In this document: in pieces, positions 1 to 32,000 of the stretch
How positions within the stretch are numbered: position 1 is the first letter of the stretch
Layout of the letters: each line of letters starts with the position of its first letter
NCBI RefSeq assembly: GCF_000829235.1
Contig: NZ_AP012549.1
Span: forward strand, 2,100,001-2,132,000
Source: a cyanobacterium endosymbiont of Epithemia turgida isolate EtSB Lake Yunoko
GTDB taxonomy: Bacteria; Cyanobacteriota; Cyanobacteriia; Cyanobacteriales; Microcystaceae
Length of the DNA stretch: 32,000 nt
Direction of reading: 5' to 3'
Notes under the pieces: generated by a model
The model's input: only the letters and a program-made list of their open reading frames with translations
Database searches by the model: none
What the model was told of the DNA's origin: nothing
Position numbers and translations under genes: made by a program

Positions 1-791
1 ATTAGCTTAATTTGCGCTTTTGGAACCGGATAATCAGTAGTGTCCCAGGTCAAACCTAATGCATGAGGATCAAGGTTTTCTCTTAACAAGTTGGATTGTT
101 TTAAAGAGGTTACTCCTTTACTTTTTCGGTTAGGCTGCTCATCAGACCAATAATTAACAATACTCATGATGCTCAGGGACAACACTAAGATGATCCCAAC
201 CCAAGCTAATGCTTGATCCATTGCTCCACTTTCGGCAGCAAAAAAGATGGCAATGGGAATTGTCTGGGTTTTCCCTGGAATACTACCAGCCAACATTAAG
301 GTTGCCCCAAATTCCCCCAACGCTCTGGCAAAAGACAACAAAAATCCAGCTATAAGACCAGGTTTCGCTAGAGGTAGTAATATTTGCCAGAAAACTCGTT
401 CTTCCGATGCTCCTAGAGTTCTAGCACTAGCTAACAAATTGGTGTCAATTTGTCTGAAGGACCCCAACATGGTTTTATACATTAATGGAAAGGCAACAAC
501 AACTGAGGCGATAACAGTAGCATACCAGGTGAAAATAACACTGATATTGAATAGAGCTAACAACCGTCCAATTGGTCCCTGCTTGCCTAACAAGAGTAAT
601 AAGACAAACCCCATTACCGTGGGGGGCAGTACCAAAGGAGCAGTTAGTAACCCATCAATTAAACTTTTCCCTACTCCCCGATATTTGAACATCCAACGGG
701 CTGTGGTTACACCGCAAAAGGAGGCAATTAGTGTTGCTGTTAAGGCTGTTTTTAAGGAAATCCATACTGGAGAGAGGTCAAGATGCATCAT
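1..791 (-). CDS. modB: Molybdate ABC transporter permease ModB; 5' part of a gene that leaves the window at base 1, possibly a ModB-ModC fusion
   Basis: Own translation of the minus strand from ATG ATG at 791/788: MMHLDLSPVWISLKTALTATLIASF...TAPLVLPPTVMGFVLLLLLGKQGPIGRLL...SARTLGASEERVFWQILLPLAKPGLIAGFLLSFARALGEFGATLMLAGSIPGKTQTIPIAIFF. It has the EAA-loop signature of CysTW/ModB-type permeases. The frame stays open to base 1, about 45 codons past a normal permease end. It is absent from the ORF track because it is edge-truncated. The listed + ORF 247..846 is its antisense shadow. Confidence 0.8.
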   Translation of the reverse strand, partial: MMHLDLSPVWISLKTALTATLIASFCGVTTARWMFKYRGVGKSLIDGLLTAPLVLPPTVMGFVLLLLLGKQGPIGRLLALFNISVIFTWYATVIASVVVAFPLMYKTMLGSFRQIDTNLLASARTLGASEERVFWQILLPLAKPGLIAGFLLSFARALGEFGATLMLAGSIPGKTQTIPIAIFFAAESGAMDQALAWVGIILVLSLSIMSIVNYWSDEQPNRKSKGVTSLKQSNLLRENLDPHALGLTWDTTDYPVPKAQIKL

Positions 792-866
792 TATTTCTGC
801 CTTTTACTTTTTACCCGTGGTTGATCATTGCCCATCCTATAATTAATAGAGGTACTTAATTGTCTT

Positions 867-1118
867 CTACCGAGTTCGTCTTACGTAAATGGCACGGGCT
901 AAGGTACGATCAATAGCAATTCGCATTTCTCCAACTTTAATAACATATGAAGGAAATCGCTGTTCTAAGGTAATTTTAAGTCCAGGCATAATACCCATTG
1001 CGATCAGTTTTCGCAATAGATTCTCATCATTCTTTCTGAATTGAGTAATAATCCCCGTATCCTTTTCTTTGAGAAGATTTAGAGCTAAAGACTCAACAGT
1101 GAAACTTTGGGCAAACAT
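867..1118 (-). CDS. feoA: FeoA-family small ferrous iron transport protein
   Basis: 83-aa ORF with a FeoA-like pattern (GIITQF...LLRKLIAMGIMPGLKITLEQRFP..VIKVGEMRIAIDRTLARAIYV). Its ATG at 1118 abuts the feoB stop at 1120. Confidence 0.7.
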   Translation of the reverse strand: MFAQSFTVESLALNLLKEKDTGIITQFRKNDENLLRKLIAMGIMPGLKITLEQRFPSYVIKVGEMRIAIDRTLARAIYVRRTR

Positions 1119-1119
1119 T

Positions 1120-2586
1120 TTAGAACGTGACCTCCAGAATAGATAAGAGTTGATTGAGTAAATACCCCATTAAAAAGGCAAGTACAATAATAAAACTTGT
1201 CATAGCTAGAGTTATTTTGAGTCCGTGTTGTTTTAAAATTAATTGGAATTGAGTCAGACAAGGAATAAATAGAGTTAAGGTAACTGCCGCTACGATCAAT
1301 TGACGACCCATTAAAATACCTGAGCGATGAAGGTCAAACATAGCTGCAGCCCCATAGTCTCGACGAAAAAATCCGTAAAGAAAAATGCTGGAGGTTGAGG
1401 GAGGAAGTCCTAACCAAATCATAATTGGTTCTAACTCCTTGAGTAATATTTCAAAGAGTCCAGACAGTTTTCCTAGCCAAATTAATATTGATACTAAAAT
1501 AGATATGTGAATAATTTCCTTTAAATACCATAGAGTTCTTCCATAAGTTTTGCTTAAAATAGACTGAACCCTAGGCATCCTTAATGGGGGAATTTCTAGA
1601 TAAAAACAGGCACTATCGCCAGGTAGTATCTTGGCAGTTAATAACCCTACAATAACAAAGATAAAACTCATCGTTCCCACCCAAATAGTTAGAGCAGCAG
1701 GACTTTGAGACAGTAATCCCAAAATAACTCCTAATTGAGGCGAACAGGGAACAACTAAGGCTAATAATAGGGTAGCAATCACCCTTTCCCGTTTACTTTC
1801 TAGGGTACGGGTAACCAGAGTAGCCATTGTTCCACATCCTAATCCTAAAACTAGGGGAGTAATAGAACGTCCTGATAAACCTAAAGCTTTTAACAAGCGA
1901 TCAGCTAATAGAGAAAGTCGAGGTAAGTAGCCACTATCTTCCAGTAGAGAAAACATCAAAAAGAAAGTACTGACAATAGGGAAAATAATAGCGATAACAT
2001 ATCTTAATCCTAATGTAATAATACCATGTTCATTAGCAATCAAATTTTGCAAAATTGTCCAGGGTAAAAGAGTAGCAGTTATCTGATTAACCAGAGGGTT
2101 AATAGTTTTGGCAAAAAAAACTTCGAGATTACTTACCAATACTCCTACGCCAAAGTTACCAATAAATTGATATATTCCAAAATAAAAAATGATGATTGCT
2201 AAGGGAAAGCCCGTAATGGGATTCACAGTCAGCTGATGAAAAAATTCCTCACTTTCCTGGGATTTTTTCTTTATATTAACCACGGATGATTCTGCTATTT
2301 TCCTAGATAATTGATGGCGACTTTTTGCAACTACCAACACCAGAGGATCACTAAACTGAGATCTAACATAATCAATAACAGTTTTAATTTCTGAAAAACG
2401 GGGCTCTAGTTTTTTGGCTTTTTCCCAAAAAACGGGATCTCCTTGAATAAGTAATAGGGCTAAACTGCGCTTCGCAATTGGATATTTACACGAACTAGAA
2501 TACTTTTGATGACCTTGTGTCAGCAAGGATTCAATTCTTGTCAGCCCTTCTTCAATAGCTGTAGGATAGCGCAGGAGTGGTGACAT
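1120..2586 (-). CDS. feoB: Ferrous iron transporter FeoB, membrane (C-terminal) portion; separated from the G-domain by a frame change
   Basis: 488-aa polytopic ORF containing the FeoB core region GLGCGTMATLVTRTLESKRERVIATLLLALVVPCSPQLGV. It begins ...RYPTAIEEGLTRIE, which is what normally follows the FeoB G-domain. It overlaps the upstream fragment by 35 nt in a different frame. Confidence 0.8.
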   Translation of the reverse strand: MSPLLRYPTAIEEGLTRIESLLTQGHQKYSSSCKYPIAKRSLALLLIQGDPVFWEKAKKLEPRFSEIKTVIDYVRSQFSDPLVLVVAKSRHQLSRKIAESSVVNIKKKSQESEEFFHQLTVNPITGFPLAIIIFYFGIYQFIGNFGVGVLVSNLEVFFAKTINPLVNQITATLLPWTILQNLIANEHGIITLGLRYVIAIIFPIVSTFFLMFSLLEDSGYLPRLSLLADRLLKALGLSGRSITPLVLGLGCGTMATLVTRTLESKRERVIATLLLALVVPCSPQLGVILGLLSQSPAALTIWVGTMSFIFVIVGLLTAKILPGDSACFYLEIPPLRMPRVQSILSKTYGRTLWYLKEIIHISILVSILIWLGKLSGLFEILLKELEPIMIWLGLPPSTSSIFLYGFFRRDYGAAAMFDLHRSGILMGRQLIVAAVTLTLFIPCLTQFQLILKQHGLKITLAMTSFIIVLAFLMGYLLNQLLSILEVTF

Positions 2587-3184
2587 AATTACCGACCTTG
2601 GCTTTTAACGTTTCAATGCCTCTTTTTTGGTAGGCTGATAGGGTGACAACGGGGATACCGAGAGAGGCTTCTAATTGTTTTTCATTGACCCAAATTCCTA
2701 ATTTTTCAGCTTCATCAAGCATATTAACTGCTAATAAAACCGGGAGTTGAATTTCCATGAGTTGAAATGTCAAGGCTAACATTCGACTGAGATGTTTAGC
2801 ATCAATAACATGAATAACTAAATCAATCGATTCTGTTAATAGAAAATCTCGAGAACACTGTTCTTCTTCTGTCATGGGAATCAAAGAATACATCCCGGGA
2901 GTATCAATGATAGACACTGTTTGTCCAGCAATAACTGCCTGCCCTTTAAAAATTTCAACGGTTGTCCCAGGATAGTTGGAAACAGTTGTGTAACTATCTG
3001 TCAACAGGTTAAATAGAAGACTCTTTCCCACATTAGGAGAACCGACTAAAGCAATAGTAGCTCGAGTAGGGATTAAAGGGTTAGAGTATTTCTTGAACTG
3101 ATTTATTGTCCAAAAACGATCCCAGATAGCTGTCAATTTACCTGGGGATATTTGGCAAAAATCCCGACAGTGATTGCACGCCAT
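2552..3184 (-). CDS. feoB: Ferrous iron transporter FeoB, N-terminal GTPase domain fragment
   Basis: G1 GSPNVGKS, G2 GTTVE, G3 DTPG and G4 NMLD motifs are present in order. ATG start at 3184. It ends after ...GIETLKAKVGNYVTTPALSYSY, where the membrane domain continues in another frame. Confidence 0.8.
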   Translation of the reverse strand: MACNHCRDFCQISPGKLTAIWDRFWTINQFKKYSNPLIPTRATIALVGSPNVGKSLLFNLLTDSYTTVSNYPGTTVEIFKGQAVIAGQTVSIIDTPGMYSLIPMTEEEQCSRDFLLTESIDLVIHVIDAKHLSRMLALTFQLMEIQLPVLLAVNMLDEAEKLGIWVNEKQLEASLGIPVVTLSAYQKRGIETLKAKVGNYVTTPALSYSY

Positions 3185-3486: not shown

Positions 3487-3699
3487 TTAGTTTTCTACAA
3501 TATGACCAGGTTTAAAAAACCAAATAATCCAAATACTTAGTATTAATTTAAAAATAGCTGAAGTCATCATGAACAATAAAAATATAGCCAAACTTCCTGC
3601 CATAATCGCTGCTAGTTTATGAATTTCGTCTTGAACTTTTATTCTAATCCAACTAGCAGTAATCCCGACAATAAACAATAAACAATAAACAATAACCAT
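3487..3699 (-). CDS. Hypothetical small membrane protein (70 aa, two hydrophobic segments)
   Basis: ATG-initiated ORF with hydrophobic composition. Its 5' end is built from a 7-bp tandem repeat (see findings), so whether it is a real gene is uncertain. Confidence 0.3.
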   Translation of the reverse strand: MVIVYCLLFIVGITASWIRIKVQDEIHKLAAIMAGSLAIFLLFMMTSAIFKLILSIWIIWFFKPGHIVEN

Positions 3700-3736
3700 A
3701 ATTTCTATTCACCTCAATCAATACCATAATTCTAAT

Positions 3737-4096
3737 TCAATCTAATCTATTCTGAGGCTCAATATTAGTGGCAATCCAATATAATTCTAACCAGAGTTTA
3801 GGGTTCTTCTTTTTAAGATTAGACATGGGGTCCCTTACAATTCTTGTTGCATTTAGACAAACAACTTCAACTAATCCTAAATTTTCGGCAAGTTCTTTTA
3901 ACTCTTTTTGATATGAAAGAATATTCTTCCCTGTTCTTGCAGAATAATAAATGGCAAGATAATGATAAAATTTCTCTTGTCTTTTCGCCCAACTATCAAC
4001 AACGGTTAAATAACAACCACTCAATAGGTAGGAAATATGAGGATAATACTTATTAACAAGAGAAATATATTCTTCAAGTAATTTCTCACGAATCAC
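3737..4096 (-). CDS. Hypothetical protein, nif-cluster associated (119 aa)
   Basis: GTG start preceded by GGAGGG 9 nt upstream. It overlaps the stop of the upstream ORF by 11 nt, which looks like translational coupling. I recognise no family motif. Confidence 0.45.
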   Translation of the reverse strand: MIREKLLEEYISLVNKYYPHISYLLSGCYLTVVDSWAKRQEKFYHYLAIYYSARTGKNILSYQKELKELAENLGLVEVVCLNATRIVRDPMSNLKKKNPKLWLELYWIATNIEPQNRLD

Positions 4097-4463
4097 TGCT
4101 GCAATCCCTCCACTTTAAACTATGAGATAGGTCAGAAAATAGAGAAGCTTTAATGCAATGGTTTTTGATTTTAGTGCATTTGTTAAAAAACACACCCTTA
4201 TGACTGATACAATCCTTTAGAGGGTATTCAGAAAATTGGAAAGCTACCTCATTAATAGGACAGTTTTCGCTGATTTTTGGACAAAATTTAGGCTTGAGGC
4301 AAGACAGTTTAACAGTTTTGTTATTTTTGCGGGATAATTCTAATTCTCGTCCAAAAAGAAACTCACTATAGTCGGCTACATTATCCAGACCCAACAAATT
4401 GAGCAAAATCTCTCCCATCATCCAAAATGTTGTTTTGAAGACAAATGTTTTCCATTTGAGCAT
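4086..4463 (-). CDS. Hypothetical cysteine-rich protein downstream of fdxH (125 aa)
   Basis: ATG ORF with nine Cys, including FCPKISENCPINEV...DC...KC...HC. It resembles cyanobacterial Mo-dependent-nitrogenase C-terminal-domain proteins only weakly and from memory. Confidence 0.45.
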   Translation of the reverse strand: MLKWKTFVFKTTFWMMGEILLNLLGLDNVADYSEFLFGRELELSRKNNKTVKLSCLKPKFCPKISENCPINEVAFQFSEYPLKDCISHKGVFFNKCTKIKNHCIKASLFSDLSHSLKWRDCSSDS

Positions 4464-4614: not shown

Positions 4615-4956
4615 TTACCCTAAGTAAGGTTCCTGATGAGTTTTAATCGTACAATCAGAGCGAGGATAAGCTACACAAAGAAGCACCCATCCTTTCTCAA
4701 TTTGTTCATCATCCAAAAAGCTTTGATCTTCTTGGTCAATTTCTCCCTCTACCATTCTGCCAACACAGCTAGAACAAGCTCCTGAGCGGCAAGAAGAAGG
4801 TAACTCTATGTCGTTTTCTTCAGCAAAATCTAAAATATACTGATCTTCTGGGACTTCTAAAGTTACGTCTATTTCCGCAAATTCTTCTTTCTTGCCCGTC
4901 TCTTGATTTTTTCTTTTGGCAACTTTCATGAGACGAACTTTGTAAGCAGTGGTCAT
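4615..4956 (-). CDS. fdxH: Plant-type [2Fe-2S] ferredoxin, nif-associated (FdxH-like)
   Basis: It has the C-x4-C-x2-C...C ligand pattern ([60 protein letters not shown]) and sits after hesB, as in cyanobacterial nif clusters. Confidence 0.9.
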
Positions 4957-4994
4957 GTGTGTTCTCCTTTAAGGACAATAATTGGAAACTTAAA

Positions 4995-5354
4995 TTAGCT
5001 ACAAGGGGTGGTTTTACTACTACAATCTCTTGATGAGAAAGACTTGCCACACCCACAGGTATCTCCAGCATTAGGATTAGTAAAAGTAAATCCGCTTTGG
5101 GTTAAACTGTCTACAAAATCGATTACCACCCCTTTGAGAAGAGGGAAACTTTGGGAATCAATATAAATAGGAACATTCTCCTGCTCAAAAAACATATCTT
5201 GAGCGTCTGGCTGTTTCACTAAATTGAGGGTGTATTCATAACCACCACAGCCGCCATTTTTAATCCCAACACGAATCCCGGTTACTTTAGCTCCTTTCCC
5301 TTCTAAGAAGGTACGAAGTCTAAAAGCTGCTTTTTCAGTTAAACTAACTGTCAT
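4995..5354 (-). CDS. hesB: HesB/IscA-family Fe-S cluster assembly protein
   Basis: IscA-type motifs GGCGGYEY and the C-terminal CGCGKSF are present. It lies between hesA and fdxH. Confidence 0.9.
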   Translation of the reverse strand: MTVSLTEKAAFRLRTFLEGKGAKVTGIRVGIKNGGCGGYEYTLNLVKQPDAQDMFFEQENVPIYIDSQSFPLLKGVVIDFVDSLTQSGFTFTNPNAGDTCGCGKSFSSRDCSSKTTPCS

Positions 5355-5473
5355 AATTGATCTCCACGTTTCAGTTGATAGTTAATAGTTATAGTTGTCG
5401 ACTGTAAAGCTGTATTCTTTACTTACTATTCACTACCTATGTGTGTTTTGGGCGATTGTCCTAGTTGAGTTTT

Positions 5474-6217
5474 TCAGTTCAAATCACCACAAACCGGACA
5501 GTCAGGATCATGATAAGGACGACGTTTAGCAAAGGTGGTACTCGCCAAATCCATGGTTAATAATTGTCCTGTCAATGGCTGTCCTAACCCCGTAATTAAT
5601 TTCACAGCTTCTAAGGCGGCTAAACAAGCTAGGGTTCCTGAAACAGCTCCTAACACCCCAAATCCCCAACGGTCCCAGGTAGGTTTCTCAGGGAAAATAC
5701 AGGACAAACAGGGGGTCTTCCCAGGAATAACCGTAGTCAAGTAGGCTTCCATCTCACTCATAGCCGCTTCCACCATTGGAATTTTCTGCCGCACACAGGC
5801 GGCATTTAGGGTTTCACGTTCGTTAAAGTCAAAGGCACAATCGAGGGCAATGTCTGCTTGTTGCATTAGGTTATGGACATTCTCTGTGGTTACAAATTCG
5901 GGTATAGCCTCAATTTCTACATCAGGATTGATTGCTAAAAGAGTTTTTTGGGCTTTGAATACCCTCGGTTTTCCCACCCAATCATCGGTCATTAAAATCT
6001 GACGATTTAGGTCTTCTCGGCGAAGATTGCCCCCTCGAACTAGAACTAACTTGCCTATTCCCGCAACAGCTAAGTAAAGGGCGACAGTTCCACCGAGCCC
6101 TCCTACCCCTGTAACAACAGCAGTAGTGGATTTTAGTTTTTTCTGTCCTTTTTCACCAAAGCCGTCTAATTGCATTTGACGAGAATAGCGTTCTAATTCA
6201 ATGGGGGTCAGTTTCAT
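5474..6217 (-). CDS. hesA: HesA/MoeB/ThiF-family adenylyltransferase
   Basis: It has the nucleotide-binding loop GVGGLGGTVALYLAVAGIG and the CLSC...CPVCG zinc motifs. It sits after nifW. Confidence 0.9.
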   Translation of the reverse strand: MKLTPIELERYSRQMQLDGFGEKGQKKLKSTTAVVTGVGGLGGTVALYLAVAGIGKLVLVRGGNLRREDLNRQILMTDDWVGKPRVFKAQKTLLAINPDVEIEAIPEFVTTENVHNLMQQADIALDCAFDFNERETLNAACVRQKIPMVEAAMSEMEAYLTTVIPGKTPCLSCIFPEKPTWDRWGFGVLGAVSGTLACLAALEAVKLITGLGQPLTGQLLTMDLASTTFAKRRPYHDPDCPVCGDLN

Positions 6218-6225
6218 AATGTTTC

Positions 6226-6561
6226 TTAATCCTCAGTTTCTTGATCTAAATCGTCGAGTAAAACGTAGTTTTTAGGGGCATCTTTAAAGACCTTAAATAG
6301 CTTAGTTTTCAGAGGACTAGAAGTTTTGAATAACTCATAAGCTTCTTGAAAAGCTTCACCATACTTAGCTAATTTTTTCGATTCACTGATATCAGGAAAC
6401 GCCTTATCAACGGCGGCAATAAGAATGGAAAACTGCTTCAAAATATGAAGCCGATTAACATTTACAAAACTGGGGTCATATTCAATTTCAAAAAATTTCA
6501 AAAAGTCTTCTGCATTCGTTAATTTAGAAAACTGTTCGTAGGTCTTTTCCACACCGGACAT
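6226..6561 (-). CDS. nifW: Nitrogenase-stabilising/protective protein NifW
   Basis: 111-aa ORF with the NifW-like N-terminus (...AEDFLKFFEIEYDPSFVNVNRLHILKQF...), in the conserved position before hesA. Confidence 0.85.
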   Translation of the reverse strand: MSGVEKTYEQFSKLTNAEDFLKFFEIEYDPSFVNVNRLHILKQFSILIAAVDKAFPDISESKKLAKYGEAFQEAYELFKTSSPLKTKLFKVFKDAPKNYVLLDDLDQETED

Positions 6562-6562
6562 T

Positions 6563-6799
6563 TTAGAGTTCCTCCCAACTTTTGAGTTGTTTTTTTAGTT
6601 GATCTAGTTCAAAATAAATATCGTAAGTTTTCTGAGCCATCTCTAGCAAGGTTTTGTAATTTATCGGTAAGCCTTCCGCTAGATCGTGCAAATCCATTTT
6701 TTGTTGACCCGATTTGGAATTAAGTCGTTTGATGGATTTCTTGAGAGCTTCTATATCTTCTAGTGTCGGTTTAGTGGTAGTTGTTTCTTCCATTTTCAC
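6563..6799 (-). CDS. Small nif-cluster protein of the DUF683 type (78 aa)
   Basis: Charged helical ORF lying between the DUF269 gene and nifW, as in Cyanothece-type clusters. The start is GTG at 6799 or ATG at 6793. Confidence 0.65.
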   Translation of the reverse strand: MKMEETTTTKPTLEDIEALKKSIKRLNSKSGQQKMDLHDLAEGLPINYKTLLEMAQKTYDIYFELDQLKKQLKSWEEL

Positions 6800-6938
6800 T
6801 CAACTCTTCTTTGACAAACCGTTAGTAATGAACAATTCTCACTTAATTATTGTTCAGAAAAATTAAAACAGCTATTTCTGATAAAGATTTCCAAAAATCT
6901 CTTGGTTTAAGAGAATAAATCTTGATAGATTTTAGCCA

Positions 6939-7412
6939 TTAAAACCTTGCAACTTCAGGAAAACGCTGCACAACTTCGATCCCTGACTGAGTAATTTTTT
7001 CTCCTTGGGCTGCTAACCTTTCTAAGGAGTCAAATCCAAAACGATGAGCATCTCTTAAAGTCTGACAAACCGTTATTAAACGACCGCTCCAAACCAAAGC
7101 CCAACCAAATCCCTCATTATTTAGATCGACTATTACCTGACATAACTGAGCTGTTTCTTTTTCAATTAAACTGGCAACAGCACGATAGAAACAAAGAATC
7201 CTTAATTCAGTAGCTGGATCGATATCTCCCTCTAGAGAAATATCCCGTTTTTGTTTCTTATTAATCACATAAGGTCCGAGGACTAATTCATTAGTCCAAC
7301 TTTTATAAACCCCATATTGATCGTAGGACCGAATTTGTTGAGCAACCTCTTGTAAGAAGGGACTATCTGAAACCAAAAGCGTTGACTGTTCTGAATTAGT
7401 TTTAGTGGTCAT
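6939..7412 (-). CDS. NifX-associated nitrogen fixation protein (DUF269 family)
   Basis: 157-aa ORF immediately downstream of nifX. The ATG is preceded by GGAGA. The call rests on conserved synteny. Confidence 0.75.
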   Translation of the reverse strand: MTTKTNSEQSTLLVSDSPFLQEVAQQIRSYDQYGVYKSWTNELVLGPYVINKKQKRDISLEGDIDPATELRILCFYRAVASLIEKETAQLCQVIVDLNNEGFGWALVWSGRLITVCQTLRDAHRFGFDSLERLAAQGEKITQSGIEVVQRFPEVARF

Positions 7413-7464
7413 AGTAGCTCTCCGATGTTAATTAACGATTAACAATTGAATGAACTCAAAACTA

Positions 7465-21451: not shown

Positions 21452-21466
21452 CCCTATTCTACCATT

Positions 21467-22073: not shown

Positions 22074-22124
22074 CTACCTACCATTGTAGCAAGTTCTTAC
22101 CTATAGTTGTCGAGACATTAAGCC

Positions 22125-23666: not shown

Positions 23667-23867
23667 ATGAAAGTTATTTTAAGTCGTAATGATACGGGCA
23701 GTTTATCTGTCTACGTTCCTAAAAAGGACTTAGAGGAAGTAGTGGTTAACGAGACCCCCGCAGATGAGGGAAGAATTCTAACCTTAGCTAATGGTTGGGA
23801 TTTAAAGTTTCCTACCTTAACCGATGATACTAAGTTACCTCAAACTATGGAAGCGACAAAGCTTTAA
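23667..23867 (+). CDS. nifT: NifT/FixU
   Basis: MKVILSRNDTGSLSVYVPKKDLEEVVV...LTLANGW. The ATG at 23667 has an AGGAG SD at 23655-23659. The track start at 23631 is an over-extension. Confidence 0.85.
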   Translation: MKVILSRNDTGSLSVYVPKKDLEEVVVNETPADEGRILTLANGWDLKFPTLTDDTKLPQTMEATKL

Positions 23868-24002
23868 TTACTGTTAGTTTTTGAAGAATAAAACGGAGTT
23901 AACTTCTTTAGAGAATGCGAAAAGTAAGGGGCAGGAGAAAGAAGTAAAAATGTCTGTTCTTCCCTCTTACCTCGTTGTTCTTTAATTATTTAGGATTTAG
24001 TC

Positions 24003-24599: not shown

Positions 24600-24604
24600 G
24601 AAAA

Positions 24605-25009
24605 ATGGCTAATGTTATTTTTTATGAAAAACCCGGTTGTATTAACAATACAAAGCAAAAAAAACTCCTCCAGAAGGCAGGTCATACCCTGGATGTTCAT
24701 AACCTGTTAACAACCTCTTGGACTTTAGAAAGATTACGCCCGTTTTTTTGTAATCGACCTGTTCAAGAATGGTTTAACCCTACTGCACCTCGAATTAAGT
24801 CAGGGGAAATTGTTCCAAGACAATTAGACGAGAAAACAGCACTTGAATTAATGATAGCTGACCCTCTATTGATTCGTCGTCCTCTTATTCAAGTGGAAGA
24901 AGTTTTTCAGGTAGGATTTGATGTGGAACAAATCGACTCTTGGATTGGTTTAAATAGTTTAAGTCCAGAAATAGAGGATTTAGAAACTTGTCCTAATATT
25001 CACCAATAA
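24605..25009 (+). CDS. ArsC/Spx-family nitrogenase-associated protein
   Basis: The N-terminus FYEKPGCINNTKQKKLLQKAGH and LIRRPLIQV are typical of the ArsC-fold nitrogenase-associated subfamily. It is the last gene of the plus-strand nif unit. Confidence 0.7.
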   Translation: MANVIFYEKPGCINNTKQKKLLQKAGHTLDVHNLLTTSWTLERLRPFFCNRPVQEWFNPTAPRIKSGEIVPRQLDEKTALELMIADPLLIRRPLIQVEEVFQVGFDVEQIDSWIGLNSLSPEIEDLETCPNIHQ

Positions 25010-25030
25010 TTAATTATTGAAAAAGCTATT

Positions 25031-25060
25031 AGAGATGTAAATTAGCACATCTCTTTTATT
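25031..25060 (+). terminator. Rho-independent terminator of the cysE-nifVZT unit
   Basis: A perfect 8-bp stem AGAGATGT (25031-25038) / ACATCTCT (25047-25054) with an 8-nt loop, followed by TTTATT. It lies 22 nt after the stop at 25009. Confidence 0.7.
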
Positions 25061-25162
25061 CTTAAAAGAAGAAAAATATAAACAGTCCAATAAATTCAAA
25101 ATAATTGAGAAGAAAATGACAGGTTTAAGGGAATTAATAATATATTTTTTCAAACTTTATGC

Positions 25163-25197
25163 TAATATATGATTATATGTAATATAATCATATATTA
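25163..25197. repeat. Perfect 16-bp inverted repeat with a 3-nt spacer
   Basis: TAATATATGATTATAT (25163-25178), gta, ATATAATCATATATTA (25182-25197). Confidence 0.9.
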
Positions 25198-26430
25198 CGA
25201 TATTTTCTGCTATGATCGTTCGTGTATTATATGAATTTGTTGGGAATAAATTTAAGAACTTAAAAGCTACTGAGCTAGCTGTAAAACAATTTTAATAAAA
25301 ATCGATAAAAATCTAGCTTCATATAGGTTTTCAAAACTCAACGATCTAGTTCTATATGAGCCGAGGTTTTGAGATCGTAGGGTGCAGTTAAAATAAGAGG
25401 TTTTCAAATTATTAAGATACTAATTTATTATTATCACTCTAAACAACATAGAAATCTAAATAGATAATTATAGAACAACTCAACGAAATAAAGTTGAACA
25501 AGTTTAAGAATAACTATAGGTTTTGTTAAATTTCAGAAAAATAAATTTTAAAATTATGTTGAACTATTTAAATATTAAGTTTATATAAAAAAAGCTTCTT
25601 AATAAGAAAATACATAATAGCGGTGCTAAACAATAAAAGTTTGTCAGTACTGTTATTGATATTAAATATTTAAAGTTGTGACGCTAAAATAATGTTTTAA
25701 ATTAGTAGATAATATTCGCCTTATAAAGTTTATTTTCTTACTCTTTACATTAGTCATTATCTACCAATTTTTTAAAAGAAATAACTAACGATAAAATCTT
25801 TTATGATAGATTATTAATTCCGCATTTATATCAGGAGCACCATCGTAATATAAATTTTGTTCAACGATTGTTGTCTCTTTTAAAACTTCTGTTTATTCTA
25901 CGTTAAGAAACATTAGACTAGTAGCAGCAATGATATAGTTGTTGCGGAGGTTAATAATCTAAGTAGTAGTCACTAACATAGTGAGTTATTCCTCTTTCTT
26001 TAATTACTTTCATCTTATAAAAAGTTTCAGGATAATGTAAATCCCAAAATACTGGAAAAGTATTGAGTTTTACAATCTATTTAGGGGAAGTTATGTAGAA
26101 AATTTATCTAGTTTTAGATAATGTTAGTTACACTTAAAATAATTTTGTGTAATTCATTACATTATTATGAATTTTAACTATTTTTTTTATACTCCAAAAC
26201 ACATTATATAAACAATGACTACTAAGCTAAATTAGTAAATCCTATTTTAATGTTAGATTGAAGTGAAATAGATTGTTCAATGAAGTGTTATTTTTAAAAG
26301 AAGTTGGATTGCTCCTGAGTTCATCACCTGATTTAAACAATAATTTAATTCTTGTAACCGATTCAAGGTTAATAATTTAGTTCGGGAATCGTATAATTTA
26401 CCAATTATCAAAATCACTATTAAAACTTAG

Positions 26431-27132
26431 ATGTTGATCCCTCTGACTCACCAGGCACTTGATAAAATTATTCCCGCTATTGCAACGGGAGCACAATATG
26501 CATCTTGTTGGGGAAGAGCGCGAGACGTCTTAAGACGGTTATTAATTTCTGTGGTTGCTCTCACGATTTTCTGGTTAATTGGAAACCTCCTAGGTTCAGG
26601 AAGCGTAGCGATTAAACTTATTTTCGACATTATTGCTGGACTATATTGGCTGTGGAGTCCCATTTACTGGGCAAATTTACGCAACAGCAGTTATCGTCGC
26701 TTTCCTTATAGTGGATTTTGGCAAGGACGAGTATTAGATATCTATCTCACAGAAGAAATTGTTGGAGAAGAACAAACTGTCAATAAGCATGGAGAACTAG
26801 TCGTCATTGAAAACCGAGAACGGCGAATTAATCTCGAAGTTGGCGATGACGAACAGTTCAGGGCTAGGATAAAGGCTCCCCTTAAACGAGTTTATCAGGT
26901 CATTAACCCTGGAGATATAGCAGAAATAGTAGTTTTATCAAAACAGCCAGATCTAAGTCGAATTGATAAAATTACAGATGTTTATCTCCCACAACATAAT
27001 CTTTGGTTAGGAGAATATCCCTATTTACGAAGGGATGTTTTTACTCAAGTTAGTGATGAACTAGGGGCAGTTAAGGGTAAAAAAACATACCGAAGACACC
27101 ATCCTCATCGGGTTCAACAACGTAGAAGTTAG
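26431..27132 (+). CDS. Conserved hypothetical membrane protein (233 aa; N-terminal TM segments, basic C-terminus)
   Basis: ATG ORF with two or three hydrophobic helices followed by a soluble domain. No motif recognised. Confidence 0.6.
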   Translation: MLIPLTHQALDKIIPAIATGAQYASCWGRARDVLRRLLISVVALTIFWLIGNLLGSGSVAIKLIFDIIAGLYWLWSPIYWANLRNSSYRRFPYSGFWQGRVLDIYLTEEIVGEEQTVNKHGELVVIENRERRINLEVGDDEQFRARIKAPLKRVYQVINPGDIAEIVVLSKQPDLSRIDKITDVYLPQHNLWLGEYPYLRRDVFTQVSDELGAVKGKKTYRRHHPHRVQQRRS

Positions 27133-27338
27133 CTCCCAAATGATGAACAATATGTTAGGGTCATTAGTCAATAAATAATTATTCGGCTCAACTAGATATT
27201 ATTTTTTTAAAAAGACACCAAAAACACTCTAGAAAGAACCTAATAAAGTTCCAAGTTCCAATTATAAAAATACATAAAATTTAACTTCAATCAACAGTGA
27301 AAGTATACTTATAAATAAGTTGAAAAATTATAAGAATC

Positions 27339-28310
27339 ATGTTAAATCACAGAGTTCAACCCCCAAAACTTTCTTCAACCCATCACAAAATTGCTGTTCT
27401 AATTCCCTGTCGGAATGAAGAATTAACAATTGCTCAAGTAGTGAAACAGTTCCGTGAAGAATTACCAGAAGCGGCGATCTATGTCTATGACAATCGGTCT
27501 ACTGATGATACTATAGCACAAGCCCACGCCGCCGAAGCCATTATTCGCTGTGAACCCCAACCAGGAAAAGGAAATGTTATTAGGCGAATGTTTGCTGATG
27601 TTGAAGCAGATATTTATGTGTTAGTCGATGGAGATGATACCTATGAAGTTTCTGCTATTAGGGGACTAATTGAACAACTAATTACAAACCGTCTTGATAT
27701 GATGGTAGGTGCACGTCGTTCTACAGTCAAAGATAAAGGGGCTTATCGTTTGGGCCATCGCGGGGGAAACCTTTTTTTAACTGGTGTAGTTAAGCTACTG
27801 TTTGGAGCTCAACTCAAGGATATGTTATCAGGATATCGTGTTTTTTCTCGGCGTTTTGTTAAATCATTTCCAGCTCTATCGAGTGGATTTGAAATAGAAA
27901 CTGAATTCACTGTACACGCTTTAGAATTAAAAATTCCTTTTGCTGAAGAATATACATTATATGGGTCCAGGCCGCCTGGTTCAGAAAGTAAGTTAAGGAC
28001 TTTCACAGATGGTTGGAGAGTTCTAGGGACTGCTATCCTTTTATTCAAAGAAGCACGACCATTTTTATTTTTTGGACTAGTTTTTACTGTCCTGGCTTTA
28101 ATCTCAATTCTTTTAGGGTTACCTATTTTGGGAGAGTATTTAGCAACAGGGTTAGTTCCTCGATTTCCGACTGCAATTTTAGCGGCTTCTATGATGTTGC
28201 TAGCTTTTTTAAGCTTAACCTGTGGTATAGTTTTAGACTCGGTTGCCAGAGGTCGTCGTGAGGTAAAACGAATGGCATATTTATATAATTCATTACTAGA
28301 ATCGAATTAA
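27339..28310 (+). CDS. Family 2 glycosyltransferase with C-terminal membrane anchor
   Basis: GT2 signatures IAVLIPCRNEE...VYDNRSTDDT...VLVDGDDTY (DxD), followed by two C-terminal TM helices. Confidence 0.8.
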   Translation: MLNHRVQPPKLSSTHHKIAVLIPCRNEELTIAQVVKQFREELPEAAIYVYDNRSTDDTIAQAHAAEAIIRCEPQPGKGNVIRRMFADVEADIYVLVDGDDTYEVSAIRGLIEQLITNRLDMMVGARRSTVKDKGAYRLGHRGGNLFLTGVVKLLFGAQLKDMLSGYRVFSRRFVKSFPALSSGFEIETEFTVHALELKIPFAEEYTLYGSRPPGSESKLRTFTDGWRVLGTAILLFKEARPFLFFGLVFTVLALISILLGLPILGEYLATGLVPRFPTAILAASMMLLAFLSLTCGIVLDSVARGRREVKRMAYLYNSLLESN

Positions 28311-28330
28311 TTTATACCTAAAGAATCTAG

Positions 28331-29335
28331 ATGAAACCTTTATTACCTCCCGAGACTTTAACTCTTGATAGGAAATTTTCAATTCCTGAAGTTTCAATTG
28401 TAATTCCTATTTTTAATGAGGAAGAAAGCATTAAACAACTAATTGTAAGAACTATTGCAATCTTGGCCGATTGTAATTTATCTTATGAAGTGATTTGTAT
28501 TGATGATGGTTCTCAAGATAAATCCTCTCAGATTTTGAGCGAATTAACTCAAAAATTTAATACCTTAAAAGCAATTATTTTACGTCGTAATTATGGACAA
28601 ACCCCGGCAATAGCGGCCGGGTTTAAATATGCAAAAGGAAAAATAATTGTAACCTTAGATGGAGATTTACAAAATGATCCTATCGATATTCCAAGATTGA
28701 TTAATAAGTTAAATCAGGGTTATGATTTAGTTAATGGTTGGCGAAAAAATCGACAAGATAATATAGTAACTCGGTTGCTTCCTTCTAAGATTGCTAATTG
28801 GGTTATTGGTAAAGTAACAGGGGTAGATCTTCATGACTATGGATGTTCTTTAAAGGCCTATCGTTCAGAATTAATTGCTGACATGAATCTTTACGGTGAA
28901 TTGCATCGATTTTTACCGGCTTTAGCCTATATTGAAGGAGCAAAAATTGCGGAGATGTCTGTTGCCCATCACCCTCGCCGTTACGGTAAAAGTAAATATG
29001 GGTTAGGGCGAACTTTTCGAGTTATTATGGATTTATTAACAGTTTTCTTTATTAAGAAATATTTAACTCGCCCTATGCATGTTTTTGGATTATTTGGACT
29101 TGGTTCAACTATGTTAGGTATAACATTAGGGAGTTATCTAATCTTTCTAAAATTAGTATTGGGGCAAAGTATCGGGCATCGTCCTTTACTAATTTTAGCA
29201 GTATTATTAGTGCTGACTGGGGTACAATTGTTGAGTTTTGGATTACTAGCTGAATTAGTAATGCGAACCTATCATGAATCTCAAAAACGTCCAATTTATC
29301 GAGTAAGAGAAATAATTGGTAGCCACCAAGAATAA
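28331..29335 (+). CDS. Family 2 glycosyltransferase, polyprenyl-phosphate sugar transferase type (DPM1/ArnC-like)
   Basis: VSIVIPIFNEEESI...ICIDDGSQDKS...VTLDGDLQNDP, plus two C-terminal TM helices. Confidence 0.8.
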   Translation: MKPLLPPETLTLDRKFSIPEVSIVIPIFNEEESIKQLIVRTIAILADCNLSYEVICIDDGSQDKSSQILSELTQKFNTLKAIILRRNYGQTPAIAAGFKYAKGKIIVTLDGDLQNDPIDIPRLINKLNQGYDLVNGWRKNRQDNIVTRLLPSKIANWVIGKVTGVDLHDYGCSLKAYRSELIADMNLYGELHRFLPALAYIEGAKIAEMSVAHHPRRYGKSKYGLGRTFRVIMDLLTVFFIKKYLTRPMHVFGLFGLGSTMLGITLGSYLIFLKLVLGQSIGHRPLLILAVLLVLTGVQLLSFGLLAELVMRTYHESQKRPIYRVREIIGSHQE

Positions 29336-29941
29336 CAATTTTTTAGGATTAAATTATGAGCAGAAAGATTATTTGGACACTCGATATTTATTCAAAATCA
29401 CAATTATCCAATTATTAATAAACCATAAGAGAATCTGCAGATGAATAATATATATATCAAAACTTGTAAAGATCAGAGAATACCTTCTGTATTCAGTCGT
29501 CCTATCCATGTTCCGAATCAATGGTTAAATTGACTGGCTTAAAACTTGCTTTTATCTAATTTCTTTTTTTCAAGATTGATAAGATGAGCTCCCTGTAACC
29601 TTATTACATGTTTAAGTGGTTAAGTGTGACAAAAAATACTACACAAGTTACATTAATTCCAGTAGTATATACTTTCTGAAAGTTGACAAGTTAGCGCTAA
29701 AAGTTATATTTTTTTAACTTTATTTTACTTATTTGAGTTTTAATTAAAGAAGAATTACTTGAATCAAATTATTTTAAATTAGCTCCTGATCATTCTACTT
29801 CCGATAATATTTTCTTAGCTCATTACACTACTTTAAGCTTAATATTTTCAAAGGATTGGATAAAAAAAATTAATTTTGCAAAATATTGTTTTTATTTGTT
29901 TTAGTAAACGGTATATAAATAGGTTTAATTAATATGAATGA

Positions 29942-30658: not shown

Positions 30659-30864
30659 TAGTATTTTTGTTTTTAATTTTAAAAATTAGTTAGGTTTGAT
30701 ATCTTTGTCAAAACTATACTAAAGGATTTTGATCCCCATCGTATGTTACTGTCGTTTTCAGTAGAGATAAGTGTCCCTTATTTAGGATATCCCGTCATCA
30801 AAGTTAAGTTAATAGTTTAAGATAGCTTTCCCAGTTAAATCCTTGCTTATTTTTTAATAAACCT

Positions 30865-31824
30865 ATGGTAGATATTCCTTTTACATTAGATCAACTCCGC
30901 ATCCTCAAGGCTATCGCTTCTGAGGGGAGTTTTAAACGGGCTGCAGACACTTTATACGTTTCTCAACCGGCTGTTAGTCTCCAAGTTCAAAATTTAGAAA
31001 AACAACTTAATGTCCCCTTATTTGATCGAGGTGGCCGTAAAGCACGATTAACAGAAGCTGGACATCTTTTGCTGTCTTATGGTGAAAAAATTATTACCCT
31101 GTGTCAAGAGACCTGTCGAGTGATCGAAGATCTACAAAATCTTCAAGGGGGAACTTTGACTGTAGGGGCATCCCAAACTACGGGAACTTATCTTCTTCCT
31201 AGAATGATTGGCTTGTTCCACCAAAAATATCCCGATGTTTCGGTGCAACTACAGGTTCATTCGACCCGACGGACTTCTTGGGGGGTGGCAAACGGACAGG
31301 TAGATTTAGCAATTATTGGGGGAGAAGTTCCGACTGAACTTCAAGAAATCTTAAAAGTTCGTCCTTATGCTGAAGATGAATTAACATTAATTTTACCGAT
31401 TTCCCATCCTTTGACTAAGGTGGAAAAGATTCAAAAAGAGGATTTATACCGCCTTGATTTTATTGGATTGGACTCCCAGTCTACCATTCGCAAAGTGATA
31501 GATAAGGTGTTAAATCGCTGTGACATAGATACCAAACGTCTTAAAATTGAGATGGAACTTAACTCGATTGAAGCAATCAAAAACGCAGTTCAAGCAGGAT
31601 TAGGTGTCGCGTTTGTTTCTATTACAGCCATTAAGAAAGAATTGGAAATGAAAGAACTTCATGTTGGCCGTATTAAAGGGATAGAAGTTCAACGAACTTT
31701 GTCTGTAATTACTAACCCAACTCGTTACCGTTCAAAGGCAGCTGAAGCATTCATTACGGAGATACTACCGGAATTCTCCACTTATAAAGAAACCTTGGAT
31801 TTCGAACTTGTTTCCTCTACCTAA
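30865..31824 (+). CDS. rbcR: LysR-family transcriptional regulator of the RbcR/Ycf30 type
   Basis: The N-terminal [64 protein letters not shown] closely matches the cyanobacterial/plastid Ycf30 (RbcR) N-terminus as I remember it. Confidence 0.8.
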
Positions 31825-31879
31825 TACTGCTAATTTCTTAAAAGAACCTGCCTCTCAAATATGATTTAGGGATAATCAA

Positions 31880-32000
31880 TCAACATGAGGTATTATGACG
31901 ATGATAAAGAGCAATGATACTATCAGTCACTTCTTCTATTGTCAACCCGTCAGTATTAATGGCAATAGCATCAGCGGCTTGACGTAAGGGAGCAAGAGAA
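31880..32000 (-). CDS. cmk: Cytidylate kinase domain, C-terminal end (cmk or panC-cmk fusion; 5' part outside the window)
   Basis: Own translation of the minus strand: ...SLAPLRQAADAIAINTDGLTIEEVTDSIIALYHRHNTSC*. This fits the Cmk C-terminal pattern APL..A.DA..I.T..L.IE.V. Confidence 0.6.
   Translation of the reverse strand, partial: SLAPLRQAADAIAINTDGLTIEEVTDSIIALYHRHNTSC

Follow-up and report, generated by a model that had tools for sequence, protein, structure and literature searches.

The 32,000-nucleotide stretch of DNA analyzed here (the window) very probably represents the nif island and right flank of the spheroid body (diazoplast) of Epithemia turgida, an obligate, non-photosynthetic and reductively evolving symbiont in which the nif core is kept and dispensable genes decay without insertion sequences. 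The dead genes of the window are nifU, fdxN, a Mo-nitro_C-family gene, a 63-aa ORF, a Tab2-like gene and a pentapeptide-repeat gene. A nucleoside transporter gene has been cleanly removed. The identity of the symbiont and its reductive evolution are already published. Our direct analysis covers the 32-kb window; genome-wide statements are taken from published tables.

Source of the DNA

Ten proteins of the window (NifH, D, E, N, B, S, V, HesA, the LysR regulator and NnrU) are residue-identical to proteins BAP18202–BAP18227 of the E. turgida spheroid body (EtSB), encoded on a chromosome of 2,794,318 bp. Thus, the first-pass annotation was right to infer, from the letters alone, a genome-reducing diazotroph of the Cyanothece clade living in a diatom. 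In total, 19 of the 20 window proteins looked up have exact EtSB matches (BAP18194-BAP18227); the exception, a 61-aa ORF, has no NCBI record. The window does not differ in sequence from the published EtSB genome. DNA identity is 98.6% with the E. adnata symbiont, 90–92% with the symbionts of R. gibba (91.6%), E. clementina and R. gibberula, and merely 74-75% with free-living Crocosphaera. Protein and DNA comparisons identify the source, which had been left open to identification, as EtSB.

The genome-wide census of pseudogenes and coding density that had been called for is available in the literature. The EtSB genome (Nakayama et al. 2014, PNAS, as cited in PMC5638926) has 2.79 Mb, 33.4% GC, 1,720 CDS and 225 pseudogenes, as compared with 5,304 CDS and 6 pseudogenes in Cyanothece 51142 (PMC5638926). 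Spheroid bodies have many pseudogenes and low coding density, and transposases are absent (bioRxiv 10.64898/2026.03.19.712447). The same work places them at an early stage of reduction, when pseudogene counts peak, and not at the later stage proposed in the first-pass annotation. The suspicion that a published genome already dealt with the lesions proved right. The accessions of nifH, nifS and nifB (BAP18212, 18213, 18214) have no further CDS accession between them, and none is assigned where nifU and fdxN are located.

The nif core is intact

The catalytic and cofactor-assembly core is intact, as first annotated. Full-length, stop-free alignments with the orthologues of free-living Crocosphaera chwakensis were obtained for nifH, D, K, E, N, X, B, S, V, W, Z, T, hesA, hesB and fdxH, and the core nif genes have dN/dS values of 0.02–0.25 against sister symbionts. 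On the minus strand, three small conserved nif-cluster ORFs to which no family is assigned (70, 119 and 125 aa; 3487..4463) are followed by fdxH, hesB, hesA, nifW, a Rop-like/DUF683 gene, a DUF269 gene and nifX, all intact (4615..7890). Next come nifN (7953-9335) and nifE (9422-10834), each shown to be intact by its EtSB protein match, alignment and dN/dS, then nifK (11320..12855; BAP18210, 511 aa), whose true start is the ATG at 12855, nifD (13038-14480) and nifH (14636-15508). Further along the same strand, nifS (16448..17647) and nifB (18221..19672) are also intact. In the nifS translation, the motifs of the PLP lysine and the active-site cysteine can be recognised, and the dN/dS of nifS is slightly elevated in the clade that lacks nifU.

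Region 20720..25009 of the plus strand carries cysE, an Asr1405/Asl0597-family ORF, a DUF2949 gene, nifV, nifZ, nifT (start 23667) and two further genes, encoding a 198-aa thioredoxin-like [2Fe-2S] ferredoxin and a nitrogenase-associated ArsC-like protein. All are intact. Between nifB and fdxN, the intact, conserved 61-aa ORF (18032..18217, minus strand) for which EtSB has no NCBI accession has the C-terminal motif CxxCVDDYxIPPCxGFSxDYSC. In the nifU–nifH interval, a conserved 13-codon micro-ORF (MSLIQKGRERSPP, then a stop; 15897-15856, minus strand) overlaps a hairpin at about 15875-15844, the whole feature spanning 15844..15897 (minus strand).

nifU and fdxN are dead

The first-pass annotation listed three broken accessory genes, nifU, fdxN and feoB. 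The first two are truly broken. In nifU (15955..16386, minus strand), a 462-nt deletion removes the IscU-like and central [2Fe-2S] domains and fuses codons 1-31 to about 185-293. The very same deletion of codons 32-185 is found in the E. adnata symbiont, as is a 12-bp in-frame tandem duplication. The latter, plus a one-nucleotide insertion specific to EtSB, accounts for the “13-bp duplication” reported earlier. In the remaining domain, the CxxC motif has Arg instead of its second cysteine in EtSB (CxxR, common to the E. adnata symbiont) and Phe in the R. gibba symbiont. A +1 A frameshift, seen only in EtSB, leads to a TGA at 16081-16083; a -1 A change occurs further along, and 6-bp and 18-bp deletions are also present. 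A Pfam scan recovers domain stubs and nothing more. The remnant evolves with a dN/dS of about 0.94, whereas lineages that have kept nifU intact give values of 0.34, 0.26 and 0.10. The best 120 matches included the NifU proteins of all the other spheroid bodies, but no full-length NifU of the EtSB, E. adnata or R. gibba symbionts. nifU is therefore dead, with two of its three domains deleted and the third inactivated.

fdxN (17729..18006, minus strand) is dead as well. A 6-bp insertion is followed by a TAA at codon 7, cluster cysteine is lost and about 77 bp are deleted internally. The inactivating changes differ among freshwater spheroid bodies, whereas the marine E. pelagica symbiont and free-living SU2 both carry an intact copy.

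Could these lesions be mere errors of sequencing or assembly, the source being a free-living strain of normal coding density? Two EtSB-only single-base indels of nifU sit in short A runs, where sequencing error is possible, and neither these indels nor the 24-bp duplication described below, also seen in EtSB alone, have independent confirmation. Even if the A-run indels were errors, nifU function would not be rescued, since the sister genome, too, has lost the CxxC motif and two domains. The source is an obligate endosymbiont, and the 462-nt nifU deletion, the replacement of Cys by Arg in CxxC, the 12-bp duplication and the stop and deletions of fdxN all recur in the E. adnata symbiont, which was sequenced independently. 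Analogous lesions occur in the R. gibba symbiont, for which a PCR analysis of pseudogenised genes, including fdxN, has been described (PMC2246100). The error scenario is thus refuted for the large lesions and, taken as a whole, is hardly credible.

feoB is an ancestrally split gene

FeoB is canonically a single polypeptide, and in the window a change of reading frame separates the G domain from the remainder of the protein; the first-pass annotation took the gene for a frameshifted pseudogene. The G-domain part (210 aa, FeoB_N, profile positions 2-155 of 156; BAP18196) spans 2552..3184 of the minus strand. The membrane part (488 aa, FeoB_Cyto, two Gate domains and FeoB_C; BAP18195) is intact, with its own ATG, at 1120..2586 on the same strand. 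The two ORFs overlap by 35 nt with a +1 frame offset, and the same offset and an overlap of about 35 nt occur in all 6 symbiont relatives and all 8 free-living Crocosphaera loci. The split falls exactly at the Pfam boundary between FeoB_N and FeoB_Cyto, the second ORF has a conserved ATG with the alignment beginning at residue 1, and both halves are under purifying selection (dN/dS 0.10–0.25; 0.10-0.19 for the 488-aa part). The published EtSB record also has two CDS. A frameshifted pseudogene is extremely unlikely in view of these data: feoB is an ancestrally split, two-ORF gene and not a product of decay.

The adjacent feoA (867..1118, minus strand; BAP18194) is intact, with a dN/dS of 0.03-0.08. 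The window holds the 5’ part of modB/modBC, a molybdate ABC permease gene (1..791, minus strand, start at 791; Pfam BPD_transp_1) that continues beyond the window edge. In L061, the orthologue encodes a protein of 648 aa that combines BPD_transp_1 with ABC_tran. ORF 247-846 (plus strand) was rejected as an antisense artefact over this gene. The gene “deletion” described between feoA and modB (PMC2246100) is not specific to symbionts, as SU2, WH8501 and XPORK-15E also lack the gene.

Spacers, repeats and hidden remnants

Spacers had been described as long and extremely AT-rich. The second property holds: GC content is 31.6% in intergenic regions, compared to 40.2% in coding regions, and two spacers reach 24–25%. 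The first does not hold within the nif cluster, where spacers total 4.36 kb as compared with 6.72 kb for the same gene set in free-living CCY0110. The perfect tandem duplication of 24 bp between nifD and nifK (12874..12921), in the spacer 19 nt upstream of the nifK ATG, is real; it is specific to EtSB and missing in all relatives, including the 98.6%-identical E. adnata symbiont. In contrast, the four-copy 7-bp repeat at 3668–3695, also presented as a duplication, belongs to the initial codons of the 70-aa ORF, and its length does not vary among the relatives; it is therefore not a duplication. A search of the window for transposase domains, dispersed repeat families and terminal-inverted repeat families found none, in agreement with the original remark that no mobile elements are visible.

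Several remnants had escaped the first reading. One, between nifK and nifE, is a pseudogene of a small Mo-nitro_C-family (PF06967-type) protein (10941..11246, minus strand; tblastn E=5e-7), the outer coordinates being extrapolated from the best match at 11052-11156. The gene (about 102 aa) is intact in free-living SU2, CCY0110, WH8501 and XPORK-15E; in the window its frame is fragmented and the cysteines are lost. A 53-aa fragment called in the E. adnata symbiont gives a weak PF06967 match.

A second small pseudogene, of a 63-aa ORF with two in-frame stops (25788-25979, minus strand), lies within a 1421-bp spacer of 24% GC at a synteny junction (25010..26430). The same spacer contains a deletion scar at about 26180-26207, where a 403-aa nucleoside transporter gene, present in SU2, was cleanly removed. 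No recognisable content or ancestry was found for its first 775 bp. The 606-bp spacer (29336..29941, 25% GC) is a collapsed version of about 3.7 kb, the SU2 counterpart of which encodes a Tab2-like protein, Uma2 and a 612-aa pentapeptide-repeat protein. Tab2-like traces remain at about 29340-29527 (plus strand) and pentapeptide-repeat traces at 29712-29876 (minus strand).

The genes of the right flank are intact: a 233-aa conserved membrane protein and two family-2 glycosyltransferases (26431..29335, plus strand), an NnrU-family gene (29942-30658, minus strand) and a regulator (30865-31824, plus strand). Retention of NnrU agrees with the first annotation. The “rbcR-type” label of the regulator is not confirmed, as no specific NCBIfam cut-off is passed, and it is best called LysR-family.

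Comparison with other symbionts and free-living relatives

An fdxN pseudogene and an N-terminally truncated nifU were already reported in 2008 for the spheroid body of Rhopalodia gibba (Kneip et al. 2008, PMC2246100). As in EtSB, the nif core is intact there, synteny is conserved and AT-rich non-coding DNA replaces genes (PMC2246100). The nifU remnants differ in detail. The R. gibba symbiont keeps about 4-6 codons upstream of the deletion, compared to 31 in EtSB, and its remnant is still an open 110-aa ORF, whereas that of EtSB is frameshifted. According to PMC2246100 the [2Fe-2S] domain is kept, but the 17Bon1 genome aligns from about residue 185 on, downstream of this domain.

UCYN-A (Candidatus Atelocyanobacterium thalassa), a symbiont or organelle of independent origin and much more reduced, retains the nif core and the small nifB-adjacent ORF, like EtSB. 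fdxN and the Mo-nitro_C-family gene are gone in both, with no trace of either in UCYN-A. Unlike EtSB, UCYN-A keeps a full-length three-domain NifU, and the genes that it lost were removed cleanly, leaving no recognisable debris. In the 21 kb of UCYN-A examined, no match was obtained for cysE, the Asr1405-family ORF, the 198-aa ferredoxin or DUF269.

Free-living Crocosphaera watsonii WH8501 resembles EtSB in having no fdxN between nifB and nifS, in missing the IscU-like and central domains of NifU and in its split feoB. It differs in that the C-terminal NifU domain survives with an intact CxxC, fused to NifS in a 469-aa protein, and in that the Mo-nitro_C gene is intact and no pseudogene debris is seen. 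Because this free-living organism lacks the same parts, the pattern of decayed genes is not diagnostic of symbiosis. The pattern might then carry no signature of intracellular life and instead reflect that fdxN and the scaffold domains of NifU are generally dispensable in the Crocosphaera/Rippkaea clade, a view that we consider evenly balanced. Like WH8501, free-living Crocosphaera sp. Alani8 has no fdxN and keeps the C-terminal NifU domain alone; fdxN is also absent at the same position in a MAG of free-living Crocosphaera as well as in Lyngbya, Microcoleaceae and Capilliphycus loci, and far more reduced UCYN-A keeps full-length nifU. Yet free-living losses are clean and the surviving NifU domain retains its CxxC, whereas the symbiont genes remain as neutrally drifting wreckage, accompanied by several further pseudogenes and by gene-graveyard spacers, and the genome as a whole counts 225 pseudogenes (PMC5638926). 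Clade-wide dispensability complements reductive evolution in the diatom as an explanation, and does not replace it.

The functions of NifU and FdxN could also have moved to the diatom nucleus, the proteins being imported back. Such transfer with import is the classical organelle route and is documented for UCYN-A; nothing in the window supports it here. Genomic and proteomic studies of E. clementina and E. pelagica, species other than E. turgida, found no functional transfers, and only six host proteins in all, every one of unknown function, in the diazoplast (PMC12377750). We consider this route very improbable in EtSB.

In the most probable account, reductive evolution in the host, selection holds the nitrogenase structural and cofactor-assembly genes intact, while genes dispensable in the symbiont setting drift to pseudogenes. 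These are then whittled down to AT-rich “spacers” by small deletions, tandem slippage duplications and AT-biased substitution, insertion sequences playing no visible role. The nitrogenase Fe-S clusters of EtSB would be built without NifU, possibly by NifS acting with the HesB-type carrier, which is retained, and with the SUF/Nfu system of the housekeeping metabolism.

Source lineage and gene order

The window derives from the spheroid body of Epithemia turgida (EtSB). Of 20 window proteins that were looked up, 19 have identical counterparts in EtSB. The first ten, NifH, NifD, NifE, NifN, NifB, NifS, NifV, HesA, the LysR regulator and NnrU, all match exactly (BAP18202–BAP18227), as do nine of a further ten. 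The exception is a 61-residue ORF that has no NCBI record. A scan of NifE with one genome per species identified the spheroid bodies of other rhopalodiacean diatoms as nearest relatives. DNA identity to the window is 98.6% over 19.3 kb for the E. adnata symbiont, 91.6% for the R. gibba symbiont, about 90% for the E. clementina and R. gibberula symbionts, 84% for the E. pelagica symbiont (uoEpiScrs1), 81% for the free-living strain SU2 and 74–75% for Crocosphaera. SU2 is the closest free-living relative and uoEpiScrs1 is the symbiont of the marine E. pelagica (2026 preprint, bioRxiv 10.64898/2026.03.19.712447). Because of these protein matches and DNA identities, the first-pass annotation, which had guessed at a diatom endosymbiont of the Cyanothece clade, was exactly right.

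The minus strand carries, from 19672 downward, nifB, the 61-residue ORF, an fdxN remnant, nifS, a nifU remnant, nifH, nifD, nifK and a Mo-nitro_C-family remnant. It continues with nifE, nifN, nifX, DUF269, a Rop-like ORF, nifW, hesA, hesB and fdxH, then with three small ORFs, feoB in two ORFs, feoA and the start of modB. The plus strand, from 20720 onward, carries cysE, an Asr1405-family ORF, DUF2949, nifV, nifZ, nifT, a 198-residue ferredoxin-like protein and a nitrogenase-associated ArsC-like protein. Beyond a 1.4-kb spacer lie a 233-residue membrane protein, two glycosyltransferases, a 606-bp spacer, NnrU and the LysR regulator. The order from the ArsC-like gene through the 1.4-kb spacer, the 233-residue protein, the two GT2 glycosyltransferases and NnrU to LysR is common to the R. 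gibba, E. adnata and E. pelagica symbionts, and is not the same in SU2, PCC 8801, CCY0110 or 51142. Rfam and tRNA scans across the window gave no matches.

The nif core genes had been described as intact, and this holds. All align full-length and free of stops with their orthologues in C. chwakensis CCY0110, and pairwise dN/dS values against six relatives range from 0.02 to 0.25.

Decay of nifU and fdxN

Intact NifU is composed of 293 residues in three domains. In the window, codons 1–31 are joined straight to about codon 185. The loss of codons 32-185 removes the IscU-like and central [2Fe-2S] domains. Of the IscU-like domain with its three cysteines, Pfam recovers only profile positions 2-26 of 127. 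The central domain, Fer2_BFD (PF04324), present in intact relatives, gives no Pfam match in the window. The C-terminal Nfu domain is damaged as well: its GSCxSS motif reads GSRASS and a frameshift places a TGA at 16081–16083.

Exactly the same junction is found in the E. adnata symbiont. In the R. gibba symbiont the 3' junction is nearly the same, and the N-terminal part is cut down to about 4–6 codons. EtSB and the E. adnata symbiont further have in common a tandem duplication of 12 bp that keeps the frame, deletions of 6 bp and 18 bp, and the change of the second CxxC cysteine to Arg. In the R. gibba symbiont this cysteine independently became Phe. Two changes are specific to EtSB, an added A that brings the TGA into frame and the loss of an A about 90 nt further on. 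What had been reported as a 13-bp duplication is therefore the shared 12-bp duplication, its 13th base being the added A of EtSB. The remnant has a dN/dS of 0.94 when the E. adnata symbiont is compared with that of R. gibba; the same segment gives 0.34, 0.26 and 0.10 in lineages with intact nifU. The remnant evidently drifts neutrally. SU2 and the symbionts of E. clementina, R. gibberula and E. pelagica have an intact nifU of 292–299 residues. No full-length NifU from the EtSB, E. adnata or R. gibba symbionts appears among the best 120 matches, which do include NifU of other spheroid bodies, SU2 and UCYN-A. The lesion proposed in the first-pass annotation is thus real, with two domains deleted, a CxxC cysteine lost and the frame shifted; nifU in the window is dead.

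The fdxN remnant (17729–18006) carries a 6-bp insertion that is also present in the symbionts of E. adnata and R. gibba, and after it a TAA at codon 7. A cluster-I cysteine is replaced by Tyr, cluster II is deleted and roughly 77 bp are missing internally. The remnant is thus no open frame for FdxN, a 2x[4Fe-4S] ferredoxin, with both cysteine clusters. The reported breakage of fdxN is borne out by the stop, the lost cysteines and the internal deletion, and these lesions mark the gene as dead. It is degenerate in all five freshwater spheroid bodies examined, with different cysteines lost in each, and intact in the marine E. pelagica symbiont and in SU2. A single first-hit mutation common to all freshwater symbionts was considered and rejected, since the cysteine losses differ by lineage. 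Given these differences, and the intact genes in the marine symbiont and SU2, fdxN decayed in parallel once selection on it had relaxed.

feoB is an ancestral split gene

feoB was the third accessory gene thought to be broken, and here the earlier reading, correct for nifU and fdxN, fails. The 210-residue ORF is a complete FeoB_N G domain, and the 488-residue ORF carries FeoB_Cyto, two Gate domains and FeoB_C (Pfam). The second ORF, in the +1 frame, has its own ATG 35 nt ahead of where the first ORF stops. The gene is split, with both ORFs aligning full-length, in 6/6 symbiont loci and in 8/8 free-living Crocosphaera loci examined, and both halves show dN/dS values of 0.10–0.25, which argues against a pseudogene. 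Both ORFs are listed as CDS in the published EtSB record. The first ORF ends in ...NYVTTPALSYSY before its stop and the second starts with MSPLLRYPTAIEEG. Their overlap (window 2552-2586; junction in comparison loci L007-L017) is nearly invariant in nucleotides across the clade. Two translationally coupled polypeptides would fit this overlap, and so would a programmed +1 frameshift. The arrangement is evidently ancestral, be the product two separate polypeptides or one frameshift fusion.

Spacers as eroded genes

The spacers had been described as long and extremely AT-rich. Within the nif cluster they are not long: they total 4.36 kb vs 6.72 kb in CCY0110, in a cluster that spans 24.2 kb vs 25.9 kb. 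AT-richness is confirmed for two spacers of the right flank, with 24% and 25% GC. The window is 77% coding and holds about 1.1 genes per kb. The EtSB genome average, computed from published figures (1,720 CDS in 2.79 Mb, 225 pseudogenes; PMC5638926), is about 0.62 genes per kb, far sparser than the window. Spheroid bodies have 0.58-0.68 genes per kb (bioRxiv 10.64898/2026.03.19.712447).

Several lesions in these spacers had been missed. The nifK–nifE spacer contains a Mo-nitro_C-type pseudogene with broken frames and lost cysteines (tblastn E=5e-7). This gene of about 102 residues is intact in the same spacer of SU2, CCY0110, WH8501 and XPORK-15E and fragmented in the other freshwater spheroid bodies too. 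No recognisable remnant is seen in the nifK–nifE spacer of the E. pelagica symbiont. The 1421-bp spacer (24% GC) contains, at 25788–25979, a homologue of a 63-residue SU2 ORF with two in-frame stops. A gene for a 403-residue nucleoside transporter, which adjoins that ORF in SU2, is cleanly deleted. The 606-bp spacer (25% GC) is the counterpart of 3.7 kb of SU2 DNA with genes for a Tab2-like protein, Uma2 and a 612-residue pentapeptide-repeat protein. Only faint traces of the Tab2-like (E=2e-4) and pentapeptide (E=3e-5) genes persist. The R. gibba symbiont counterpart is twice as long and shows a clearer Tab2-like pseudogene in two frames (E=4e-20). Remnants of genes that are intact in free-living relatives were in all found for nifU, fdxN, Mo-nitro_C, the 63-residue ORF, the Tab2-like gene and the pentapeptide-repeat gene. 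Since gene remnants can be identified in them, the AT-rich spacers are eroded genes, as likewise described for the R. gibba symbiont (Kneip et al. 2008, PMC2246100).

Other candidates were set aside. PCC 8801 has a RecQ-like helicase ahead of the 233-residue gene, and the 1.4-kb spacer gave no tblastn match to it at E≤1. The window showed no remnants of the genes that neighbour the ArsC-like gene (CCY0110, PCC 8801) or the 233-residue gene (51142), and Pfam gave no matches for ten spacer ORFs. A 518-residue gene between the glycosyltransferases of PCC 8801 is not a symbiont loss, as SU2 does not have it either. A TauE/SafE-like membrane gene sits between feoA and modB in CCY0110 (locus L010, 19866-20755) and is absent at window 791-867. 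The gene between feoA and modB was inferred to be a symbiont-specific deletion in the R. gibba symbiont (Kneip 2008, PMC2246100). This is ruled out: because free-living SU2, WH8501 and XPORK-15E also do not have it, its absence is ancestral.

A very AT-rich stretch of 775 bp (25010-25784) lies where the nif cluster meets the 233-residue gene. It has no match to neighbour genes of SU2, PCC 8801, CCY0110 or 51142, and contains a near-perfect 21-nt hairpin at 25158-25202. SU2 does not have this junction: there the segment lies some 13 kb away in inverted orientation.

Of the recent small duplications reported earlier, the 24-bp tandem duplication is real and specific to EtSB; the 7-bp repeat is no duplication but a long-standing part of a coding sequence. 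The absence of mobile elements was correctly noted, as no transposase domains, dispersed repeats or terminal inverted repeats were found in the window. This agrees with the literature, in which spheroid bodies are without transposases (bioRxiv 10.64898/2026.03.19.712447) or have them in fragmented form only (PMC5638926). Inactivation proceeded through deletions, slippage duplications and nonsense and missense changes, with no involvement of insertion sequences.

Conserved small ORFs and the LysR regulator

A micro-ORF of 13-14 codons ending in Pro-Pro-stop (in the window MSLIQKGRERSPP followed by the stop; 15844-15897, minus strand) is located ahead of nifH, at 30-60 nt past the stop of nifU. 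It is present in 20 further loci from spheroid bodies, SU2, Crocosphaera, Rippkaea PCC 8801, UCYN-A and one Microcoleaceae MAG (among them L001 at 4964, L004 at 4782, L010 at 4936, L012, from WH8501, at 4741, L064, and L070 at 10934). In the symbiont of E. clementina the micro-ORF has lost its stop. Between WH8501 and CCY0110 the GRERSPP-stop part differs by synonymous changes only. A conserved hairpin overlaps the micro-ORF, and UCYN-A is changed on both stem arms. Neither has an Rfam match. The element may encode a leader peptide of nifH or serve in transcript processing.

Another small ORF, of 57-67 residues, lies between nifB and fdxN (window 18032-18217, minus strand; 8312-8446 in L070). 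Its C-terminal CxxCV(D/N)(D/N)YxIPPCxGFSxDYxC is invariant, and it is kept in all free-living relatives, all spheroid bodies and UCYN-A. No Pfam or NCBIfam family matches this ORF, which has no NCBI accession for EtSB.

The regulator at 30865-31824, previously called rbcR-type, is named LysR-family in the source records. Its top NCBIfam scores fall below the cut-offs (selenium-metabolism LysR, 224 bits vs 250; CbbR, 165 vs 450). It has 319 residues in the EtSB and E. adnata symbionts and 331-335 in the R. gibba, R. gibberula, E. clementina and E. pelagica symbionts and SU2, the EtSB form being about 12-16 residues shorter.

Gene loss and symbiosis

Selective decay had been taken as a sign of symbiosis. 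As to which genes are lost, this does not hold. Free-living C. watsonii WH8501 and Crocosphaera sp. Alani8 (L009) are without fdxN and keep only the C-terminal domain of NifU. In WH8501 (L012, 3304-4713) this domain, with CxxC intact, is fused to NifS in a 469-residue protein without IscU-like or central domains. In UCYN-A, an independent and much more reduced symbiont, fdxN and Mo-nitro_C have left no trace, but NifU is complete with all three domains. Because a free-living relative lost them too, the lost genes indicate dispensability of nif accessory functions, not symbiosis as such. What does stand is the lingering neutral wreckage beside a conserved core: the mark of spheroid bodies is the state of the losses, not the identity of the lost genes.

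The overall finding is a correct rediscovery of a published system, whose reductive evolution, fdxN pseudogene and truncated nifU were described in 2008–2014. For the R. gibba symbiont, an fdxN pseudogene, a truncated nifU, an intact nif core and AT-rich replacement were reported (Kneip et al. 2008, PMC2246100), and 22 further spheroid-body genomes give the same general picture (2026 preprint, bioRxiv 10.64898/2026.03.19.712447). Two details are additional to the literature searched: the lineage-specific decay of nifU, complete in one clade and modestly new, and the recognition of feoB as an ancestral split gene. The main value lies in three corrections: feoB is ancestrally split, the spacers are gene graveyards, and the lost genes were also lost in a free-living relative.

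Proposed nitrogenase maturation without NifU

nifS (16448-17647) shows a dN/dS of 0.19-0.21 between nifU-less symbionts (loci compared: L001, L061, L002 and L023). The value is 0.06 between two nifU-keeping symbionts, and a comparison of the E. pelagica symbiont with SU2 gives 0.04. nifB, nifD, nifE, nifN and nifH are unchanged between nifU-less and nifU-keeping comparisons. nifW and nifX shift in the same direction as nifS. The raised nifS value may reflect relaxed constraint on NifS once its partner NifU was lost, and is suggestive only.

Unlike other spheroid bodies and UCYN-A, which keep nifU, the E. turgida, E. adnata and R. gibba clade would be a natural NifU-null diazotroph with no functional NifU domain, a reading to which we give an even chance of being right. 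It is based on the three modules deleted or inactivated, the neutral remnant, no second copy among the best 120 matches and the roughly 3-fold rise in nifS dN/dS. The lost genes might instead have been transferred to the host nucleus. This is unlikely, because no functional gene transfers were found in two other Epithemia species (PMC12377750).

In a NifU-null clade, nitrogenase would be matured with the retained NifS and HesB, and housekeeping SUF/Nfu would be the likely scaffold. Cyanobacteria generally rely on SUF. If this is true, Fe-S maturation of nitrogenase has been handed wholly to housekeeping SUF/Nfu plus HesB. Spheroid bodies are a leading model of early organelle formation and a blueprint for the engineering of nitrogen-fixing compartments. 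Complete nifU decay in this clade bears on the minimal nitrogenase-maturation set, and if the housekeeping machinery has indeed taken over, the minimal nif gene set for such engineered compartments would be smaller.
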